A DNA stretch of 26,741 nucleotides from a virus (Duplodnaviria > Caudoviricetes), in IMG/VR virus record IMGVR_UViG_3300006752_003262, positions 1 to 26,741 of that record; one strand, 5' to 3'. Shown in pieces: positions 1,886-26,741 of this stretch. Made by a program: the position numbers and the translations under genes. A model generated the notes under the pieces. That model saw nothing but the letters and a program-made list of their open reading frames with translations, did not search any database and was not told where the DNA came from. Position 1 is the stretch's first letter; every line of letters starts with the position of its first letter.

Positions 1886-1914
1886 AGGCTACCACATATC
1901 CTACGGTCTGTCAA
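1886..1914 (-). promoter_or_regulatory. Promoter TTGACA-N17-TAGCCT
   Basis: Consensus -35 (it includes the recA TGA stop) and 17-nt spacer. Confidence 0.7.
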
Positions 1915-2885
1915 ATCGAAGCGTAGATTGCCTTCGCAATTGTTTCCCGTACATCTTCGTTTTCATCAAGGTACGCCTTGGTATTAACCCGCCCCTGTCC
2001 AATGTTCGTGCCCTCGTAGGCGTACCACGCACCCTTCTTATCAAGGATTCCCATTTGTGCAGCGATATCTACAATGTCCCCGGTTCGGCTGATACCTTCA
2101 CCGTAAGCAATCTCAAACTCTGCCTGCCTGAATGGGGGAGCGACCTTGTTCTTCACAACCTTAACACGGGTCTTGTTACCGACTGCTTCGGAAGCGTCCT
2201 TCAGTGTTTCAATGCGTCGAATGTCTAGGCGAACCGATGCGTAGAACTTTAGAGCCTTACCACCAGTAGTCACTTCGGGTGATCCAAACATGACACCAAT
2301 TTTTTCTCGCAACTGATTAATCATGATTAGTGTGGTCTTTGAGTTGTTCAAGTTTGCAACAATCTTACGCATAGCTTGAGACATGAGTCGTGCGTGTAGT
2401 CCAACATGACTGTCACCCATTTCGCCTTCAATCTCGGCACGGGGTGTAAGGGCTGCTACCGAGTCCACGACTACAACGTCTAGGGCACCTGATTCAATCA
2501 ACTTGTTCGTGATGGTCAGCGCCTGCTCCCCGGTGTCTGGCTGAGCAACGAGTAGAGAGTCTACGTCGCATCCGATTGCTTTTGCGTAGATTGGGTCAAG
2601 GGCGTGCTCAGCGTCGATGAATGCACACTGCCCGCCGTTCTTTTGTGCTTCAGCAATCACATGCAAAGCTACCGTGGTCTTGCCTGACGACTCTGGACCG
2701 TAAACTTCAGTGACACGCCCTCGTGGGAGGCCACCAACACCGAGCGCTAAGTCTAGGGCGATTGATCCTGTTGAAATGGTCTCTACGGCCATTGAGGCGT
2801 TGTCCCCGAGGCGCATGATTGCACCTTCCCCAAACTGTTTTTCAATCTGGCCCAGTGCGTCTTCAAGAAGTTTAGATTTGTCCAT
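1911..2885 (-). CDS. recA: Recombinase RecA (bacterial-type, 324 aa, no acidic tail)
   Basis: [16 protein letters not shown] Walker [48 protein letters not shown]. Confidence 0.98.
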
Positions 2886-2941: not shown

Positions 2942-3310
2942 ATGAGTAAACGTGGTCCGAAGCGGATGGTAACTCAAGCTGTTCGTTTGGGTGAGTATGG
3001 GAAAACTAAGTGGCACATCGAACTTGACTGTGGGCATTCCGTGGAAAGCTCCCGTAAGCCCAAGATCAATGAAGATCGTCTATGCTGTAAAACGTGTGGC
3101 GCTCCGCCAGCGCCTGTTCCTTTGATGCAGGTTTTAGCAGAGGATGGAGAGTTTTTTGAGCCATACGAACCTATGGACGAAATAAAGACGAAGGCAGTAA
3201 TTGCGTCTAAGGTTGGAGTCCCCTTGGATCAGGTGGAGATTGTCAATGGCACAGCTACTGTCTTCTTGGACGCTCAGCAAGTGAAGATGTTGAAGTCTTC
3301 CTCTGCTTAG
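2942..3310 (+). CDS. Hypothetical protein with probable Zn-binding motif
   Basis: LDCGH...CCKTC; ATG 2942 fits the leaderless promoter better than the track start at 2897. Confidence 0.75.
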
Positions 3311-3763
3311 TCTCAGCCTGTCGGTGTATGTGTTTGGGTATAGAACACCTACCCTATCGTGTGGAGGTTGACGCCGCCCCACGATAGCCTTAGGCAATTC
3401 CCGTAGTGTTATATAAGTACTGTTCACTTCATGGACCCCAAACACCGCCTATTTTTTCAGCGATGCCCACTCTCCCTAGATATGGCTCTAGTAGCCCGTG
3501 TGCCGGAACTGCGTGGGCGCTTGCTTGTTCCGAATCTGTATCTCAAGTCTTGATGCTCTCCGTGCAGTGACTGGCATTCCGTCAAGAATGGTGTTCCAGT
3601 GTATCGTGCGATCCAAATCTTTACTCTGTGATACAGACGTGCCCGTCTTATCAGTAGTTAACCAGTTGCGTAACGAGTGTTACCCTCCGGTCCTTCAGTG
3701 AACGTTTATGTCATCGGGGTTCCCCGGTTTCAGTCTTGTGGCAGGTTTCTCCTTTGTAGGTTT
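3311..3763 (-). ncRNA. Candidate large structured ncRNA (~450 nt), family not recognised
   Basis: Largest non-coding gap in the window; own promoter; at least 8 helices including long-range 3422-3437/3689-3703, pseudoknot 3330-3338/3437-3445 and complementary loops 3368-3373/3580-3585. Ends approximate. Confidence 0.6.
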
Positions 3764-3769
3764 GCTGAT

Positions 3770-3798
3770 AGGGTAGTCCTCTGCGCTGTTTGTGTCAA
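3770..3798 (-). promoter_or_regulatory. Promoter TTGACA-N17-TACCCT firing into the non-coding gap
   Basis: Perfect -35, 17-nt spacer, TAnnnT -10; predicted TSS near 3763. Confidence 0.6.
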
Positions 3799-3811
3799 GT
3801 GTGGTTTTGGG

Positions 3812-3840
3812 TTGATACCTTGACACTGTGTTTATACAAT
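3812..3840 (+). promoter_or_regulatory. whiB promoter TTGATA-N17-TACAAT
   Basis: Motif match; inverted repeat gtgtcaag (3792-3799) / cttgacac (3819-3826) spans the divergent promoter pair. Confidence 0.65.
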
Positions 3841-3863
3841 ATGCTTGTGATGAAGGATACAGC

Positions 3864-4112
3864 ATGTTAAACGTCAAAGCGCCCGAGTGGTTTAAGGAGA
3901 CTCCTTGTGTCGGAGAGGATAGGTTGTTCTTTTCGTCGAAGCCCACGTTACGTAGAGAGGCTATTTCTATGTGCGATAAAGTTTGTGGTGTCAGAGAACA
4001 GTGTTTACAGTTTGCATTAGACAATCAGTTAACAATTGGAGTTTGGGGAGGTCAAACGGGTCCTGATCTAGTTCGTTTGCTAGAGGGGTCTGAAGATGTT
4101 CACCGGGTATGA
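3864..4112 (+). CDS. whiB: WhiB-family Fe-S transcription factor
   Basis: Four Cys (C...CDKVC...C) and the GVWGG turn; ATG 3864 after aagga. Confidence 0.92.
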   Translation: MLNVKAPEWFKETPCVGEDRLFFSSKPTLRREAISMCDKVCGVREQCLQFALDNQLTIGVWGGQTGPDLVRLLEGSEDVHRV

Positions 4113-9390: not shown

Positions 9391-9770
9391 TGCCTGCGGA
9401 CTATGGTAAGAGCGCAAAGGCAAAAGCCACTAAGCTACATAGCCTGTATGTACGCACTAGGGACAACTTTACTTGTCGTTGGTGTGGTGTCACTAAGGAG
9501 AGTGGAAAGCAAATTCAGTGCGCTCATATTATTTCTCGTAGCATTTCTGCGACTAGGACTGATGAGAGAAACGCCTTGGCGCTGTGTGCCTCGTGCCACT
9601 GGGCGCAGTCGAAGAACCCACTTGTTTGGGCACGGTGGTTGGAAAACGAATTGGGGCGTAAGTTTTTAGACGAGTTACTTGAGCGAGGTGTTCCGGGTGT
9701 TAAGGTTGACTGGAATGATGAAGTTGACCGACTGAAAATCGCCCTTGACGCTTTGCCTGATAGTAAGTAG
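9390..9770 (+). CDS. NinG/Rap-like HNH nuclease
   Basis: SLYVRTRD, CRWCG, QCAHIISR, DERNA..LCASCH. Confidence 0.8.
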   Translation: MPADYGKSAKAKATKLHSLYVRTRDNFTCRWCGVTKESGKQIQCAHIISRSISATRTDERNALALCASCHWAQSKNPLVWARWLENELGRKFLDELLERGVPGVKVDWNDEVDRLKIALDALPDSK

Positions 9771-9773
9771 ACT
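9745..9773 (+). promoter_or_regulatory. Promoter TTGACG-N17-TAGACT, leaderless start at 9780
   Basis: The -10 begins with the upstream stop codon; 6 nt to ATG. Confidence 0.7.
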
Positions 9774-9779
9774 ACCCTT

Positions 9780-10130
9780 ATGAACACTGTACGCAACAAG
9801 CCAATTACCCCTGTAGAGGTTGAGAGCGAGTTACTGCGCCTTACAAGTGAGATTGAGCATGAGACAGAAGCGTTTGAAGTTCTGGCGAAAGACCACGCCC
9901 AGAAAGAGGCTGCATACAAGAAGCAATGGTTTAAAGAATACCTTGCGTCGGAAGGGGCTGTTAAGCAGAAAGAGAGTTGGGCAGGGTACAAGACCAGCGA
10001 GTTATATTATGATGCAATGGTCGCTGAAGCGCTCGTTAAGGCTAAACGAGAAAAGTTACATTCCTTACGCACGGCGTGTGACTCTCTACGCACGATTGCG
10101 GCAAATGTTCGATCACAGTCAAAGTTTTAA
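9780..10130 (+). CDS. Hypothetical coiled-coil protein
   Basis: All-helical character; leaderless promoter. Confidence 0.8.
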   Translation: MNTVRNKPITPVEVESELLRLTSEIEHETEAFEVLAKDHAQKEAAYKKQWFKEYLASEGAVKQKESWAGYKTSELYYDAMVAEALVKAKREKLHSLRTACDSLRTIAANVRSQSKF

Positions 10131-15081: not shown

Positions 15082-15652
15082 TCCTAGCGAGCAAGAAAAC
15101 TTTGTTATTGCAATGACCCAACTAAAGAAGGGTGGGCATTATGTCGAACTAGGTGCTTTCAATTCCCACGAGGGTAGTAACACCCGTATTCTTGAAGAGG
15201 ATTTCAATTGGAACGGTGTGTCGTTTGAAATTGACCCTGAACGTAAGGAGCAGTTTACTTCCAATAGAAAGAACCCTTGTTTTGGTGATGCGTTGAGCTT
15301 TGACTATACAGAGTATTTCAAGTCACAGGAGTGGCCTAAGCAGATTGACTTTCTGCAAGTTGATATCGACAACGGGTATGATCAAGCTATGCGACCTGAG
15401 GGAAGTCCGTACACTTCTCTGCTTGGGCTAATTTCTTTACCTCTTACTGTTTATCGGTTTTCGGTTATCACGTTTGAGCATGATGCTAACATGTACTTTC
15501 GGAACCAATCTATTCGTGATGCACAGCGAGAGATTCTAGACGCCTTAGGCTACACATTAGTTGTTAGGACTATACACGAAGACTGGTGGGTTGATCCTAC
15601 TGTTATTCAGCCAGATATCTACAGGCAGCAGTTGAGGTGGGAAGTTCTCTAG
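15062..15652 (+). CDS. FkbM-family methyltransferase
   Basis: YVELGA...SNT..LE...W.G..E, IDFLQVDID, VITFEHD, EDWWV; ATG 15062 after ggaga. Confidence 0.8.
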   Translation: MQNQQFSPSEQENFVIAMTQLKKGGHYVELGAFNSHEGSNTRILEEDFNWNGVSFEIDPERKEQFTSNRKNPCFGDALSFDYTEYFKSQEWPKQIDFLQVDIDNGYDQAMRPEGSPYTSLLGLISLPLTVYRFSVITFEHDANMYFRNQSIRDAQREILDALGYTLVVRTIHEDWWVDPTVIQPDIYRQQLRWEVL

Positions 15653-16965
15653 ATGATGATTTCAATCTTGCGGCGAATGCCCATACCGAGTCCGGCGCAT
15701 AGGTTGAAGGCGTGGGTGGCGGCGTCAACTTGATCGTCGTGGACTCGTGCTTCGGGGAAGGACGACAGTTCATCAATGAAGTCTGTGGTCCAGTCGCCTC
15801 GTATTAGACGCACGTTACCGTTAGCTACAGCCGCCGCAAATGGCTTTGCTCTTGTTACTTTGTCGCCTGTGGCTCGTTGCCCTGAGAAGGTGTAGCCTGG
15901 CAGGACGTACCGAGCGTATTGGTCCACTAAGTTTTTACCTGCTGATCCTGGTTCTTGCTCCATCTGGATTGTTATCTCAGGCCCGTCCTCTTCAGCAGTT
16001 TCTTTAATAAACTTTTCAACTTTTTCACCTTTCGCACGAATGCGGCGTACATCTAGGATGTAAAAGACACCGTTATCAAATGCTCCGAGGCATCCAACTG
16101 TCCAGTCAGGATCAGGATTAGAGTTAGACGGTTCAGTTCCGGCTAAGTCCCAGAATCGCACCACAGTTGTGTCTTTACTCAAGTCTGGCATTTCGCTTGG
16201 TTCAATGACCTCAAAGCTACCACGGTCAAACATTGATCCGAGTGTGGTTGCCCACCAGTCACCAAACTCTAGGCGCTTTCGTTCGATGGGGTCTAGCTCT
16301 GCGAGCATGGTGCGGTAGGAGTCTGGGTCAATTCCGGGGTTATCAGTTAGCATTGAGGGAATAAAGATACGTCCCTTGGTTTTACCTTCAACTAGGAAAC
16401 GCTGACGGACCCAGTTAGGTGCAGGGTTAGTTGCACAGCGCATTCTGAGAGGGACTGAAGCTAGCGGACCACTTGCGGGGCGGCGTAAACGTGAGAACAT
16501 GTACCGGTAATCTGCTTCTCTGATTTCGGTAACCTCATCCATTCCGATGAACTGAAACTCTGAACCCTTGTATCGCAGATAGTCGTTGATGTTATTTAGG
16601 TAACCGAATGTTATTCGTGCCCCATTGGGAAACGTTGCAGTGTACGCATTTGCGTTCCAGTGTACATCATCAAACTGCATAATCCATTCTCTGAAACGGT
16701 CCATTAGAGCGCCAGGTAGGGCAAGGTCAGCGTATGTGCGCCTAAACAAGATAGCACTGTAGTTTGGGATGTCCACGTATTGTAGAGCGGCCATAATCAG
16801 TGCCGAGGATTTGCCCCCACCTGCGGCTCCACCAAACATTACTTCTTGTCCTTCTGACCGGAGAAAAACTTTTTGAGTTAGCGAGGGTTCTTCAACCCAG
16901 TATTCAGATCGCTTTGGTTCTAAATATGCTTTGATTTTTTCCCAGTCGGGAGTCTCTGTGGACAT
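15649..16965 (-). CDS. terL: Terminase large subunit
   Basis: Walker A GGAAGGGKS, Walker B FIGMDE, ATNP, nuclease WDLA and HDDQVDA; SD aggag precedes ATG 16965. Confidence 0.95.
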   Translation of the reverse strand: MSTETPDWEKIKAYLEPKRSEYWVEEPSLTQKVFLRSEGQEVMFGGAAGGGKSSALIMAALQYVDIPNYSAILFRRTYADLALPGALMDRFREWIMQFDDVHWNANAYTATFPNGARITFGYLNNINDYLRYKGSEFQFIGMDEVTEIREADYRYMFSRLRRPASGPLASVPLRMRCATNPAPNWVRQRFLVEGKTKGRIFIPSMLTDNPGIDPDSYRTMLAELDPIERKRLEFGDWWATTLGSMFDRGSFEVIEPSEMPDLSKDTTVVRFWDLAGTEPSNSNPDPDWTVGCLGAFDNGVFYILDVRRIRAKGEKVEKFIKETAEEDGPEITIQMEQEPGSAGKNLVDQYARYVLPGYTFSGQRATGDKVTRAKPFAAAVANGNVRLIRGDWTTDFIDELSSFPEARVHDDQVDAATHAFNLCAGLGMGIRRKIEIII

Positions 16966-16971
16966 ATCTGC

Positions 16972-17003
16972 TTGTCTCCTAGACAAATAAACGGTACAGT
17001 ATA
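16972..17003. promoter_or_regulatory. Overlapping divergent promoters for terL and the portal operon
   Basis: Plus strand: TTGTCT-N17-TACAGT-N6-ATG(17007). Minus strand: TATACT at 17003-16998 overlapping the same -10. Confidence 0.55.
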
Positions 17004-17006
17004 CCT

Positions 17007-17165
17007 ATGAAGAATCTTCTAAATCGTTCTGGCGCTGCTCATATCATGATGGGCGCTGGTATACTACTAATAGGCTTTGGTATTAGTATACTCAGTTTGG
17101 GGTGGGGTCTGGCAAGCGCTGGCTTTGCTTGTGGAATTTACGGCTATCTCTTAGGGGCTGAATAA
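17007..17165 (+). CDS. 52-aa two-TM membrane protein upstream of portal (not in ORF track)
   Basis: MKNLLNRSGAAHIMMGAGILLIGFGISILSLGWGLASAGFACGIYGYLLGAE; TAATG overlap with the portal start. Confidence 0.8.
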   Translation: MKNLLNRSGAAHIMMGAGILLIGFGISILSLGWGLASAGFACGIYGYLLGAE

Positions 17166-18631
17166 TGGCGTGGAACTCAAGTTCAAATAAATCTCTTCAA
17201 GATGCAATCTCGGGGCAGCAAAAGGCTGCTTCTGTTTCGGTAGGCGCACCAGTCTCGTACAGCCCGTCGTTGACCGGCAATGATCGTGGGTATCACGATG
17301 GTTGGGATATCACTAAGGCTTATAAAGAGGGTGTGTCTAAGGTTACTTGGGTGTTCCGCTGTATTGATGTTATTTCATCAAACCAGGCACGCCTACCTAT
17401 GATGTTCCGCAAAGACAACAATCCGTTTGGTGAGGTTGTCGGGGATCACTCTATGTTGAAATTGTTCAACAACACTGCAAATGACGGAGAGAACGCTTTT
17501 GCCTTCAGGTATCGTTTATCTTCGCAGTTGCTGATTAGTAGCCGTGGTGTCTTTGTTGAGATTGTTAGAGGACGTGGCGGTAAGCCTATTGCGTTACATC
17601 TGCTACCCCCACAGAACACTTCGCCCATTCCCGATGTAAACAAGTTTGTGAAGGGGTTTGAGGTTCAGATTAGTGCGATGGAGAAGCGTACTATTAAACC
17701 CGAGAACGTTATCTGGATTCGCCGCCCGCATCCACTAGACCCTTATCTATCTATGACTCCGATGGAGGCAGCGGGTGTTGCTATTGAGCTAGAGAACTTG
17801 GCTAAGATTTATAACCGTAACTTCTTGATTAACGATGGACGACCGGGCGGGCTGTTGGTTCTTCGTAGTGAGATTGCTGACGAAGATAAAGAGGAACTTC
17901 GTTCCCGGTTCCGTGGCAATATTGGTCGTGCAGGGTCGGTTGGTGTCATCTCATCGGATGACGGTGCAGATTTCGTAGACACTGCTGCGAGTCCACGAGA
18001 TGCTGCTTACGTACAGATGCGTACTATTACAAAAGAAGAGATTCTTGCTGCGTTTGGTGTACCTGAGTCTATCATCGGTAACTCGTCTGGTAGGACTTTC
18101 TCTAACGCTATGGAGGAAGGTAAGGTTTTCTGGATGGAAACCATGTCTCCGCACCTTGACTTGATTGCTCGTTCCTTTGATAAGATTGACGACTCTTTCT
18201 TTGTGGATTTTGATGTGAACAACGTTCCCATTCTTGTCCTCGCTAAGCAAGAGCGTGAGCGTCACCATCTGACAGAGTTTCAGACTGGCTTGATTAGTGC
18301 CAATGAATACCGTGAAGCGTCCGGCAGGAAAAAGGTTGTTTCTGACATTGCGGACTCTCTCCTTTCTAACCCGAACCAGACCCCAATTGCAAATACAGAA
18401 AAGCCCATGAATGATCAGGGTACTGTCGAAGAGGGTGTGCCGTTAGATGTTCAGGCACAAAATGCTCAACAGTCCGTGGTCACAGAGTTTAGCCCAGAAG
18501 AGGGCGGCTTTGTTGAAGCAGGTACTGTAACAGGTACTGAAAATATTGAAGCTCCTGCATCACAAGTTCCAAGCGAATTAGAAGGCGATGAAGCGGAGGG
18601 TAAGAAGAGTGCCCCTTTTCAGCAGGTCTAA
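17165..18631 (+). CDS. Portal protein, HK97 family, with acidic C-terminal linker
   Basis: VFRCIDVIS...ARLP, NFLINDGRPGGLL, EEILAAFGVP, ANEYR. Confidence 0.95.
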   Translation: MAWNSSSNKSLQDAISGQQKAASVSVGAPVSYSPSLTGNDRGYHDGWDITKAYKEGVSKVTWVFRCIDVISSNQARLPMMFRKDNNPFGEVVGDHSMLKLFNNTANDGENAFAFRYRLSSQLLISSRGVFVEIVRGRGGKPIALHLLPPQNTSPIPDVNKFVKGFEVQISAMEKRTIKPENVIWIRRPHPLDPYLSMTPMEAAGVAIELENLAKIYNRNFLINDGRPGGLLVLRSEIADEDKEELRSRFRGNIGRAGSVGVISSDDGADFVDTAASPRDAAYVQMRTITKEEILAAFGVPESIIGNSSGRTFSNAMEEGKVFWMETMSPHLDLIARSFDKIDDSFFVDFDVNNVPILVLAKQERERHHLTEFQTGLISANEYREASGRKKVVSDIADSLLSNPNQTPIANTEKPMNDQGTVEEGVPLDVQAQNAQQSVVTEFSPEEGGFVEAGTVTGTENIEAPASQVPSELEGDEAEGKKSAPFQQV

Positions 18632-22992: not shown

Positions 22993-23009
22993 TTGGGGGT
23001 TAGGCTATT

Positions 23010-23189
23010 ATGAGACCCGCAGAAGTGGGAAGCAGGATTAGCCTCGCTAACGAAGCCTTACTTAATGTAGGGTCCAGGATTGTTTTAGGCTCCACGGTAG
23101 ACATCGAAGCGGTAGAATACCTAGAGGACGATGGCGTAATTTATGAGTTTAGACCGTTAGAGAGGTTTGGCGATTCTGATGCTGACTGA
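23010..23189 (+). CDS. 59-aa hypothetical protein (not in ORF track)
   Basis: MRPAEVGSRISLANEALLNV...FGDSDAD*; fills the gap and overlaps the next start. Confidence 0.6.
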   Translation: MRPAEVGSRISLANEALLNVGSRIVLGSTVDIEAVEYLEDDGVIYEFRPLERFGDSDAD

Positions 23190-26100
23190 AATTGAAAGAG
23201 CAGAGGTTGGAGCCTTTACCCTTAAAGTGGGACCTGAAGTCGGGCCTAACGCTGATGCTCTGACGAGTCTTACTCGTGGACGAGGGCCACGTAGGGGTAA
23301 CCTAGAAGACCTCTTGAAGTACTGGCGTCCGATCATGAAGAAGCCTGGCGGTTTTCGCCGTTGTGTCGTCATCCTCATGGATAAGCCTCAGTTTGGCGGC
23401 AAGCCTCAGCGAATCTGCGCTTGGTTGCACCACGAGATCACGGGCAAGTGGCCCAACGAAGGCAAAGGCAAGGGCAAGGGTAGCCGTAAGCGTCGTGGCC
23501 GTAGTGTACGGCGTGTTAGCAGTGCGGCTCGTAGGGGAAAGTCTGGGGAACTCTCTTCACATAATCAGGTGATTGAAGTGTCTCCTTTGCGTATCGCAAT
23601 TCGGGAGTCTAGAGACTTTGGTGGCGTGCTGGTTCAGCCTATTGCGGGTCGCCAGGGCGCAGTCGATATGAAGGCTGCGATGTTTTCTACGTATGCCTTA
23701 AAAGTCCCTGTCAACGAGGCGGTAAATGAAAAACGAGTGGGCATTTTTGGCGCTAACTCTCGTGCAGGCCAGGCCGCTCAAGCGGCTGGTAGTATTATTC
23801 TTCCGGGCGACATTTCAGATATTCGTAGCCCAATCCGATCACAAATTTATGAAACACTAACACCCGGTGGCGGTCGTGGTCGTCCGGGTATTCCTAGCGC
23901 TAGGCGTTTGATTGGTGGGCTAGGGCGTCGTGGTAGCCGTAGCACTGGTGGTGTGCGTAATAAGTTTAGGTGTCCTCCCGGATTCCAAAAGGGCGGAACC
24001 TTCACAAACGCTCAGTTCAGTACCTGTGGTGCTCAAATTTTGGGTATTCCTGGTAAGGGTGTAGGCTCACCTTCTTCTGGGGCGCAGCGAGCTTTGGCTG
24101 CGTTGGCTCGTGACGCTGCTCTTGTTCGGGAGATTGGTGACCTTCGGAGCAACCGTAATCCTTATGATATTATTCGTGCGGCTCAGATTCCCGTTGCCCC
24201 CAAGAAGGGTAGCCCCACCCGGAGGCAGACCTCTATCAACAATGTGTTGTCCCGTGCAGACGAGGCCGATTTCAGTTTGCGTGCTGTTAGGCGTGACGGC
24301 GTTATTTTGGAACCTGTTGTTTCTTTGCAGGCTTTGGGTAAGCTTGACGAGTTTGACGATTTAGCTGATGGTACTCTAATTGATCGGTATACTTCCGGGC
24401 AGATTGGTAAGGACATTGTTCCTGCGTTTTCTACAGGTCTTCGTGATGTTTATGTTGACATCCCTGAGTCGGGTTCAGTAAAGATTAGCAGGGTCGGTGG
24501 CGAGTTGACACCTACCGAAGTAGATAGTCTTCGTAGAAGTTTCCCTACTTCTATGCGTCGGGCAGCTAATTTACCTGACCCAAGCGCCGGAATCCGTGAC
24601 TATGCAGATAGGTCCGATGGTAGGTTCTCGGTAGACTTTGGTGAACTGAAAAACAATAAGTTTGAGGTTGCGGATAACAAGAACAAACTGATTCGTGTTG
24701 AAACGGCAGGCGGTAAAACTCTGAGTGTTCCGCAGTGGGTTTACGATACGTTCCTGTCTCGTTCTGCGCCACGCCGAGCAAAGAACGCTCCGGTCTATGA
24801 GATGATTTCGGAGGAGAAATCGGTAAACCCTTTTTTCTTATCCACCAAGACGATCACGGCGCTGACGCACCGAACGGCCAATTATCACGACTTGATTGAA
24901 GTTCGGGCCGCTATTTTTGCGGAGGGCCGAGACAACATTCAGTTTAAGAAGCGTCGTGCTGGTGGGCGTGCTCGTGCAATGTTCAATCCGGGTCTCAACC
25001 GATATCAGTGCCCTCCCGGTACTCGATATGGTGGTCGTATTACTGACCAGTTTGGCCGGAACTGTGGCTATTCCCTTCCACGAACAGTGGTTAACAGTTT
25101 GGTTGACCTTGGTACCCGTATTGAGGACGGTATGGAACGTCGGCGTAAACGTCGTCAGGAGCGTGGTTCCCGTCGTGAGCGTTTGGGTTCTGCTGTTAAG
25201 GAGAAGTACGATAATTCTTTAAATAAGCTTGCTGACGTTATGGACAAAATGGCTAGCGTTTTGGACAAGACGGAGGATAAGCGTCCGGGTCGGATTGGTC
25301 CGAGTATTCAGGATCGACGGAATGCTGCTGAGTTGACAGATGAAGATCGTAACCTTTTGGGGGGTGCGCCTTTAGCTGACGCTTTAGATAATTTAAAGAA
25401 TGTTGTTAATGGACAAGACTTTAATAACCCTGATCTTCCTGAGCTTCAAAAAGCCTATAAGGCTGTGGAGAAGGCTGCTGGTTTAGAGGCCGGTCGTCTT
25501 ACGGACAATCCTCCGAAGACTGACAATGACCGCAAGATGGGCAAGCGCATACTTGATTCAATTGCTGGTATTTTGGACCGGATTGCTAATTTTGTTGATC
25601 CTGATACATCTCGTCGGGACCGAAGTGAGAACCGTCGTCCTGCTGCGTCTGCTGCTTCGGCTCCGAAGGCTCCGAAAAAGTTTGATTCTCCTCGGAAGCC
25701 TAAGAATGTGGACAACTTTGCGCAGCAGTCTATTGGTGGCCGTCGTAAGAAGGTTGATGTTCCTGAGCTTAAAGACTTGTCTGATGATGACAAGACGAAG
25801 TTAGACGTTGCAATTCAGAGTGAGTTTAATGAGTTGTCATCGTTTTGGGCTAATCGTCTAAACAAAGATATTAATGATTTTTCTGAAAAAGATATTCGGA
25901 AGTATCTAAAAGCCAACAAGAAAGATAAGGACGCCCGTCTTGAGCGCCGTCGTTATAATGACTGGTTAGAACTTAACGAGTTGAAGCGTGCCCAAGACGA
26001 GTTGCGTTTTGATGACGATTACGAAGATTTCATTGGTCGTCTTGCGCCGAACCGTCGTGATTCTATTGTAAGTTCACTGAAGCCTCCTCAAGACCCTCCG

Positions 26101-26741
26101 GCTGACGCTAATGTTCCTGGCGATGTTGATGTTCCCGGTGGCGTAAACATAGAAACTCCTGCTGCTGATTTGCCTAAGACTCCTAAAGATTATGGTCCTG
26201 ACGGGTTCAAAAAAGAACGTGGCAAGATGAAGAACTTGGAGTTTATCAATAGTCTTTCTGATGAAGAGTTAGAAAGCTATAAGCAGGCACATATTGAGTA
26301 TAAGAAGCAACGGGAGGCTGATGGTGAGACTGCTTACGGTATGAAAAACCGGATTAAGCAGATGGAGCAGATTCAGGCTATACGAAGTAAGCAACGTGGC
26401 GAGTCTAAGTCACCTCCAACTTCTAAAGACTTGTCTGTCAATGGTTACACGCAGGAACGTAATAACTCTATAAATGTAACCTCTGATCCGTTTGGCGATT
26501 CAGATGAGACATTTATAGTAAGTTTGACAGACGAAGAACTTGATGGGTATATTGAGAGCTTCAACAAGGACTTGAACGATCCAAAGACGCCACCTATGTC
26601 TCCGAGTAAGAAGCAGATCAGAGCGAAACTTTTGGGTGAGCGTAGTAGGCGTGATAAGAACGAAGATTCTAAAACGGCTGTAGACAGCGCCGAGTTGGAG
26701 ATGGGTGATCCTGATCCAGACGGTTTCCATCCGATTGACAA
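23179..26741 (+). CDS. Giant modular protein (>1187 aa, 3'-truncated), probably virion-internal
   Basis: Frame 1 read codon by codon from ATG 23179 (gagg upstream) to the window end with no stop; absent from the track, presumably because no stop is reached. Confidence 0.9.
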   Translation, partial: MLTEIERAEVGAFTLKVGPEVGPNADALTSLTRGRGPRRGNLEDLLKYWRPIMKKPGGFRRCVVILMDKPQFGGKPQRICAWLHHEITGKWPNEGKGKGKGSRKRRGRSVRRVSSAARRGKSGELSSHNQVIEVSPLRIAIRESRDFGGVLVQPIAGRQGAVDMKAAMFSTYALKVPVNEAVNEKRVGIFGANSRAGQAAQAAGSIILPGDISDIRSPIRSQIYETLTPGGGRGRPGIPSARRLIGGLGRRGSRSTGGVRNKFRCPPGFQKGGTFTNAQFSTCGAQILGIPGKGVGSPSSGAQRALAALARDAALVREIGDLRSNRNPYDIIRAAQIPVAPKKGSPTRRQTSINNVLSRADEADFSLRAVRRDGVILEPVVSLQALGKLDEFDDLADGTLIDRYTSGQIGKDIVPAFSTGLRDVYVDIPESGSVKISRVGGELTPTEVDSLRRSFPTSMRRAANLPDPSAGIRDYADRSDGRFSVDFGELKNNKFEVADNKNKLIRVETAGGKTLSVPQWVYDTFLSRSAPRRAKNAPVYEMISEEKSVNPFFLSTKTITALTHRTANYHDLIEVRAAIFAEGRDNIQFKKRRAGGRARAMFNPGLNRYQCPPGTRYGGRITDQFGRNCGYSLPRTVVNSLVDLGTRIEDGMERRRKRRQERGSRRERLGSAVKEKYDNSLNKLADVMDKMASVLDKTEDKRPGRIGPSIQDRRNAAELTDEDRNLLGGAPLADALDNLKNVVNGQDFNNPDLPELQKAYKAVEKAAGLEAGRLTDNPPKTDNDRKMGKRILDSIAGILDRIANFVDPDTSRRDRSENRRPAASAASAPKAPKKFDSPRKPKNVDNFAQQSIGGRRKKVDVPELKDLSDDDKTKLDVAIQSEFNELSSFWANRLNKDINDFSEKDIRKYLKANKKDKDARLERRRYNDWLELNELKRAQDELRFDDDYEDFIGRLAPNRRDSIVSSLKPPQDPPADANVPGDVDVPGGVNIETPAADLPKTPKDYGPDGFKKERGKMKNLEFINSLSDEELESYKQAHIEYKKQREADGETAYGMKNRIKQMEQIQAIRSKQRGESKSPPTSKDLSVNGYTQERNNSINVTSDPFGDSDETFIVSLTDEELDGYIESFNKDLNDPKTPPMSPSKKQIRAKLLGERSRRDKNEDSKTAVDSAELEMGDPDPDGFHPID
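24810..24837 (+). promoter_or_regulatory. Predicted -1 programmed frameshift cassette 2
   Basis: GGAGG (24810-24814), 13 nt, in-phase C.CCT.TTT (24828-24834), overlapping T.TTT.TTC; the -1 frame stops at TGA 24897-24899. Confidence 0.6.

Follow-up and report, generated by a model that had tools for sequence, protein, structure and literature searches.

A large structured RNA predicted in a marine phage lineage, with two hairpin loops that covary as a kissing helix

Only a handful of large, ornate RNA classes are known from bacteria and phages, and what the phage-borne ones do is an open question. ROOL and GOLLD are large RNAs encoded separately on phage genomes, and their folds combine multiway junctions and pseudoknots with kissing loops that covary (PMC12286853, PMC12990946); they assemble as homo-oligomers made of RNA only, measure 550–833 nt (table in PMC12990946) and, like OLE, have Rfam profiles (PMC12286853). 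ARRPOF is a mobile-element RNA of 255 nt from a Fusobacterium plasmid, with long-range pseudoknots that can be either intra- or intermolecular (PMC12990946). The pRNA of phage phi29 is shorter still at 174 nt (PMC2241910) and carries two complementary hairpin loops on separate arms; it is reported only in phi29-like phages (~20 kb, with a terminal protein), and the large terminase is described as its structural equivalent (PMC5066667). Ms1, a several-hundred-nucleotide stand-alone RNA, binds RNA polymerase in Actinobacteria (PMC9130861).

We analyzed a stretch of phage DNA of 26,741 nt (hereafter the window) in which an ORF-poor gap lies between the gene for a 122-aa protein and a whiB gene. 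The whiB operon also includes genes for a Rad52-like annealing protein and an exonuclease. Farther along, the window has phage genes for a portal and a prohead protease as well as for a large terminase, which has an RNase H-like domain. Within the gap we predict a non-coding RNA gene; an earlier, sequence-only reading had called a candidate RNA at this place, and we refine it to an RNA read from the minus strand, from about 3763 to 3346. The locus comprises the following features.

1911-2885, minus strand: recA
2942-3310, plus strand: gene for a 122-aa protein that belongs to no known family, convergent with the RNA gene
3346-3763, minus strand: predicted non-coding RNA gene of about 415 nt, with 46 distinct homologs aligned; 3' end approximate
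3749-3754, minus strand: Shine-Dalgarno-like AAGGAG in an A/C-rich 5' leader, without a start codon behind it
3770-3798, minus strand: sigma-70-type promoter, TTGACA (3798-3793), 17 nt, TACCCT (3775-3770)
3812-3840: promoter-like site of the whiB operon
3864-4112, plus strand: gene for a WhiB-family transcription factor, divergent from the RNA gene and heading its operon (start codon picked by comparison with L023)

WhiB is a pointer to an actinobacterial host, and the phages carrying the RNA probably infect Actinobacteria. Comparison of RecA did not narrow the host, the best identity being 70 per cent among 251 sampled genomes of the phylum. Judging by the CheckV figures of related records (e.g. 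128 kb at 87 per cent complete), the genomes are near 150 kb, and record names and run labels point to marine and estuarine samples.

Rfam gave no match at gathering score in the window, only AniS (E 5.5) across 3200–3950, and nothing where the RNA lies in four divergent homologous loci; covariance models of ROOL, GOLLD and OLE matched neither the window nor those four loci. ARAGORN found no tRNA or tmRNA gene in the window. With nothing from ARAGORN or Rfam, and with the element intergenic and under its own promoter, we rejected tmRNA, RNase P RNA and group I or II introns as identities. 6S RNA is shaped like a rod, whereas the RNA described here is branched and pseudoknotted; Ms1 has an Rfam entry. 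A several-hundred-nucleotide stand-alone RNA in an actinobacterial setting recalls Ms1 and 6S RNA, but this one is phage-borne, lacks their Rfam match and the HAD-hydrolase synteny (PMC9130861), has whiB and a phage gene as neighbors, and its model found nothing in 141 sampled cellular genomes. It likewise shares with ARRPOF its place on a mobile element and its long-range pseudoknots, and differs in length, in lying on a phage and not a plasmid, and in having no Rfam match.

The closer likeness is to the ROOL/GOLLD/OLE type, with which the RNA shares an ornate, covariation-supported fold, two well-supported long-range pseudoknots and a phage-borne gene. It differs from ROOL and GOLLD in matching neither their sequences nor their covariance models, in being shorter at about 415 nt, in having turned up in just one marine phage lineage and in usually having no tRNA nearby. 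The tRNA-island neighborhood that marks ROOL and GOLLD was found in only 4 of 33 loci, all of the L125/L171 lineage, and the window has no such gene. A full-text literature search over mostly open-access papers turned up none that describes the RNA among those listed; a phage RNA survey (PMC10690425), part of whose supplements gave no match, may bear on novelty. The predicted RNA belongs to a class of large phage RNA that is not catalogued, built along the lines of ROOL and GOLLD and yet unrelated to them.

The sequence-only reading had also drawn a comparison with phi29 pRNA, which survives as an analogy and fails as membership. Two complementary hairpin loops on separate arms recall the CE and D loops of pRNA (PMC5066667). 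The loops of pRNA interlock; those described here are complementary and covary, and might interlock between molecules. That the RNA serves in packaging like pRNA, as a ring on the prohead, is nevertheless very improbable. phi29-type phages have about 20 kb, a terminal protein and no large terminase, while the window encodes a conventional RNase H-like large terminase with portal and prohead protease, and related records reach 128 kb. The RNA gene adjoins the whiB/recombination operon, outside the packaging module and 12 kb from the terminase, and its product is more than twice the 174 nt of pRNA (PMC2241910).

Homologs were gathered from IMG/VR and metagenomes by way of neighboring proteins and DNA patterns. 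True homologs made up forty-three of the fifty-two matches in a gapped viral scan, forty-seven of fifty-one in a metagenome scan and none of seven in cellular genomes. The remainder (nine, four and seven matches, respectively), together with two of seven held-out contigs, were non-homologous pattern matches and were set aside; L037, L051 and L052 were also pattern matches and not homologs. The alignment holds 46 distinct sequences, without L082 (which has a 40-nt duplication), truncated copies and L124 (whose core is the same as that of L114). Two later scans with other motifs supplied the held-out set, seven new contigs of which five are homologs.

Every member of the family that we found belongs to a single lineage of marine phages. 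A blastn search with the RNA against 50,697 annotated phages gave no match, nor did the RNA model, under strict filters, in the 141 sampled cellular genomes, which represent the class with the closest RecA. The model also found no match in 17 related-phage records, of which one is at least 90 per cent complete and none is shown to have an intact homologous locus. The RNA is better conserved than the neighboring protein: in L090, identity is 73 per cent in the RNA core against 54 per cent in the aligned part of a 170-aa neighbor protein, and in L097 it is 57 per cent in the RNA against 37 per cent in the 170-aa protein.

From these homologs we built the fold model laid out below, listed in the direction of transcription where possible.

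3726-3715, minus strand: 5' tetraloop hairpin
3714-3707, minus strand: invariant single-stranded AUGACAUA after the 5' hairpin
3422-3703, minus strand: core enclosed by long-range helices P1–P3
3703-3697/3428-3422, minus strand: helix P1, double changes in 5 of 7 pairs
3693-3689/3437-3433, minus strand: helix P2, double changes in 5 of 5 pairs
3679-3675/3472-3468, minus strand: helix P3, double changes in 2 of 5 pairs
3644-3641 with 3518-3515, minus strand: long-range pseudoknot PK1, 98.9 per cent of cells paired
3534-3638, minus strand: long irregular arm with hairpin A as its tip; its internal loops carry the most invariant letters of the RNA
3575-3590, minus strand: hairpin A, 5-bp stem, double changes in 5 of 5 stem pairs
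3580-3585 (read 3585-3580), minus strand: predicted kissing loop A, UUGACG, the 5' one
3533-3503, minus strand: hairpin P9, double changes in 4 of 9 pairs
3491-3476, minus strand: hairpin P11, double changes in 2 of 5 pairs
3466-3442, minus strand: hairpin P12 with an A-rich loop, double changes in 7 of 7 pairs
3353-3388, minus strand: 3'-terminal hairpin B
3368-3373 (read 3373-3368), minus strand: predicted kissing loop B, CGUCAA, the 3' one

The model has 93 pairs (5' hairpin, P1, P2, P3, long arm, P9, P11, P12, hairpin B and pseudoknots), and 91.9 per cent of its cells are paired, with double changes in 51 of the 93 pairs. When partners were moved by one to three columns, 33–43 per cent of cells were paired, a control that favors the model since the structure was derived from the same sequences; the shuffles, for their part, ignore relatedness. 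Within the count, the outer helix of hairpin B was scored one column off register (48.6 per cent paired), and eight rows were misaligned at the loops, which lowered the figure for the kissing helix (87–89 per cent paired). Against shuffles, the whole region has a z of −1.7 on the plus strand and −1.8 on the minus strand; it folds only modestly better than they do, and the case therefore rests on the homologs.

Hairpin A is set apart from the rest of the arm by a 5-nt bulge (3595-3591), and some 33 nt of variable linker (3421-3389) lead into hairpin B. Down to 49 per cent identity nothing changes in the internal loops of the arm, whereas the letters of the kissing loops are free to vary; AUGACAUA is also unchanged in all homologs down to that identity and has no pairing partner in the model. 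One PK1 pair is altered at both positions in eight of the 46 rows, with more double changes in the held-out L266 and L226. A candidate third pseudoknot of 3 bp (3496-3494/3486-3484) is weakly indicated: a single double change occurs among the 46 rows, and the held-out L226 has one mismatch there. Beside helix P5, the purines 3622 and 3550 are A-A in 33 rows and G-G in 13, covariation that suggests a non-standard pair.

Paired columns read on the minus strand contain 245 G-U cells against 44 A-C cells, and the RNA strand is therefore minus. A promoter of the form TTG[A/C]C-17/18-TAnnnT, with varying spacers, precedes the RNA in 44 of the 45 homologs with enough upstream DNA; its position is what we used to infer the 5' end (near 3763), and together with the G-U bias it rules out a plus-strand reading. 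GGAG is present in 45/45 leaders, and ATG, GTG or TTG follows at initiation distance in one of the 45. Two small ORFs were rejected: one would begin at an invariant AUG, 34 nt away from the Shine-Dalgarno-like site, and terminates at varying places among homologs; the other, after hairpin B, has no conserved frame.

These data bear on whether the element acts in cis, as a leader or switch in which the loop contact controls a downstream gene, or as a DNA element such as an origin or packaging site. In many homologs a possible start codon comes after the purine-rich GGGAGG or GGUAGG that lies at the foot of hairpin B, and in one lineage a tRNA-Arg gene follows. The frames behind that codon vary in length and sequence, though, and the codon is often the start of a TTGCCA-17-TAGAAT promoter of the next gene. 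Furthermore, the window and several other lineages have a convergent gene next to the RNA, no conserved peptide occurs downstream of the RNA across the homologs, and the one-strand bias (245:44) and the RNA's own promoter are what a transcript would show. The convergent neighbor and the lack of a conserved downstream peptide support a stand-alone RNA gene, and we give the cis-acting or DNA-level explanation only a slim chance.

The sequence-only reading started from TTGACG (3368-3373) and CGTCAA (3580-3585), which are indeed exact reverse complements; both are apical, in hairpins (3353-3388 and 3575-3590) that fold on either strand. In the lowest-energy fold of loop A, U1 and G6 are closed and a 4-nt loop is left. 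One of 100 doublet-shuffled copies of the sequence had two hairpin loops with an exact 6-base complement; loop complementarity in one sequence is thus unusual and, alone, not decisive. The same reading had proposed looking for compensatory loop changes in homologs, and these were found both in the 45 rows with both hairpins and in held-out loop types. For loop A we took the letters at a constant distance from a conserved motif, and for loop B those of a fold made independently. Six consecutive pairs can form in 31 of the rows, five in 10 and four in 4. The ten aligned combinations (loop A/loop B) are UUGACG/CGUCAA, CUGCUA/CAGCAA, CUACCG/CGGUAA, UGGACG/CGUCUA, UAGGCA/CGCCUA, GUAGUG/CGCUAC, GUAGUG/CACUAC, AUAGCG/CGCUAC, UGAGCG/CGCUUA and UUAGCG/CGCUAA.

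We permuted partners among the eight unique loop pairs. The true pairs sum to 44 against a mean of 25.4, a value reached by one of the 40,320 permutations, the identity. In eight rows the folded loop B is 9 nt long; the best hexamer register inside it was used, in the same way for true and permuted pairs, and in two of these rows (L148, L153) loop B was set by hand. An all-against-all mutual-information scan placed the pair 3582-3371 sixth overall and first outside the nested fold, a rank obtained with eight rows out of register at the loops. Among the held-out contigs, L236, L242 and L266 have UUGGUA/UACCAU, and L226, which is 49 per cent identical to the window, has UGGAGA/ACUCCA; each makes five of the six pairs, in the same register as the aligned rows. 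In all 12 loop combinations the four central pairs are kept, and each of these four has changed on both sides. Since the effective sequence number is about 13 and the loop types cluster on the tree, these amount to some ten independent loop events and not 45. The covariation bears out the proposed loop-loop contact in a large structured RNA, and we consider it very likely that the two loops pair as a helix of 4–6 bp.

That the loop might instead imitate a −35 element and attract RNA polymerase, as a decoy in the manner of 6S or Ms1, had been offered as a more speculative alternative. The commonest loop A is a usable −35 hexamer: the TTGACG that the sequence-only reading had pointed out at 9745 is there, with TAGACT after 17 bases, but the plus strand of the window contains 24 copies of the hexamer. 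Ms1 provides an actinobacterial precedent (PMC9130861). Loop A is UUGACG in only 24 of the 45 rows, however; elsewhere it is CUGCUA, CUACCG, UAGGCA, GUAGUG, AUAGCG and others, always matched by loop B, so that most variants lose the hexamer yet keep complementarity, and two members have no loop A at all. Promoter mimicry through the loop has the faintest of chances, although polymerase could still bind through another part of the RNA.

The two members without loop A also bear on what the contact is for. In L097 and L228 hairpin A is missing, with a short tetraloop stub left and the core kept; loop B of L097 is a non-matching tetraloop, and in L228 the 3' region has about 60 extra nt. The contact is retained in L226, with which L097 groups (support 98/91); the tree hints at two losses of hairpin A, but L097, L226 and L228 are all long branches. 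Because two distant homologs without hairpin A keep the core, the contact looks like a peripheral, dispensable brace.

Covariation cannot separate pairing within a molecule from pairing between molecules. Our main reading, at a probability of roughly one half, is that the loops would pair as a clamp, probably within one molecule, tying the tip of the arm to the 3'-terminal hairpin; granted that the pairing is real, we lean toward its being intramolecular. Loop A of one molecule might also pair with loop B of the next to give a ring or cage in the style of ROOL and GOLLD, a serious possibility that we put at less than even. The covariation speaks for it equally, and the loops sit on separate arms with a variable linker between them. 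There is precedent in ROOL bridge B4 and GOLLD bridge B7, which were predicted by covariation and are intermolecular by cryo-EM (PMC12286853), and in the pseudoknots of ARRPOF, which switch between intra- and intermolecular forms (PMC12990946). The A-rich loop of P12 could add A-minor bridges. Counting against assembly are the absence of hairpin A from two distant members, the lack of an Rfam match to ROOL or GOLLD, and the fact that inspection of the alignments revealed no conserved self-complementary loop. A more elaborate version, in which an early RNA would assemble itself without protein into a ring or cage through head-to-tail kissing loops, with a six-base code specific to each lineage and monomeric hairpin-less variants, seems to us rather doubtful.

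Under the clamp reading, host RNA polymerase would transcribe the RNA early, from a promoter standing back-to-back with the whiB/recombination operon. Hairpin B, the last part to be made, would dock on loop A, and the variable linker of about 33 nt could plausibly let it reach back; docking would stiffen the long arm and shield the 3' end. At the other end, the orphan Shine-Dalgarno may bind 30S subunits and so shield the 5' end. Non-initiating Shine-Dalgarno sequences of the STAB-SD type block 5'-3' decay through 30S binding (PMC4113751), and by analogy the leader site is possibly a 5' stabilizer or a ribosome-binding handle. The working surface for a protein partner, with the RNA as decoy or scaffold, would then be the invariant internal loops of the arm and not the kissing loops; we advance this protein-binding role tentatively.

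We also looked at sequencing runs labeled as RNA, nine of which contain part of the stretch, all as contigs. The contig from run X1 aligns from 3761 downward, beginning at its second base, and the next listed piece aligns from 3818; the match between the contig end and the predicted RNA start is at most a weak hint. Runs X2 and X3 of the same study have contigs of 28.9 kb and 13.2 kb that span the locus and may be DNA. Short contigs (80–194 nt, depth 2–4) lying solely inside the RNA gene came from four runs, each of a different study, but these runs were found using the RNA gene itself and diverged neighboring DNA may not align, so that the missing cover outside it is no evidence. Transcription of the RNA is a prediction.

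Twelve naturally occurring loop pairs, usable for swap-and-rescue, and two members that have lost the contact give the family a test set of its own, and a size of about 415 nt suits in vitro transcription, mass photometry and cryo-EM. The results would tell if large phage RNAs build cages in general, or if this one is a compact monomer bound to a host machine.

The surroundings of the RNA vary among homologs. In L084, L085 and L176 the RNA and whiB stand about 1.2 kb apart, with other DNA between them, and in L097 and L228 the RNA directly abuts the 170-aa gene, with whiB absent between; the orientation divergent from the operon is retained. L082 (2296-2709; same contig as L047 and L141) has its 40-nt tandem duplication in the variable linker, either a tolerated insertion or an assembly artefact. 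The 122-aa protein has a zinc-ribbon-like CxH...CCxxC pattern and no Pfam or PHROG family; an ESM Atlas query with it gave only unnamed viral clusters, below 0.9, and it is also encoded in two related phage records in which the RNA was not found.

Elsewhere in the window, 9745-9773 (TTGACG-17-TAGACT) is a promoter-like site directly before a gene at 9780, and the large terminase and portal genes (15649-18631) lie divergently on opposite strands. No long closed ORF is listed for 23000-26741, where the DNA looks coding and may hold a long frame that leaves the contig end. In L125 (1927-2000) and L171 (1148-1221), and in that one lineage only, the RNA is closely followed by a tRNA-Arg(UCU) gene on the same strand. 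The site 3' of hairpin B is an insertion hot spot (L007, L012, L013, L076, L078, L087, L090, L113), and its inserts, whose motifs mark them as putative methyltransferase-like and other modification-type genes, are often preceded by a TTGCCA-17-TAGAAT promoter near their start codon.
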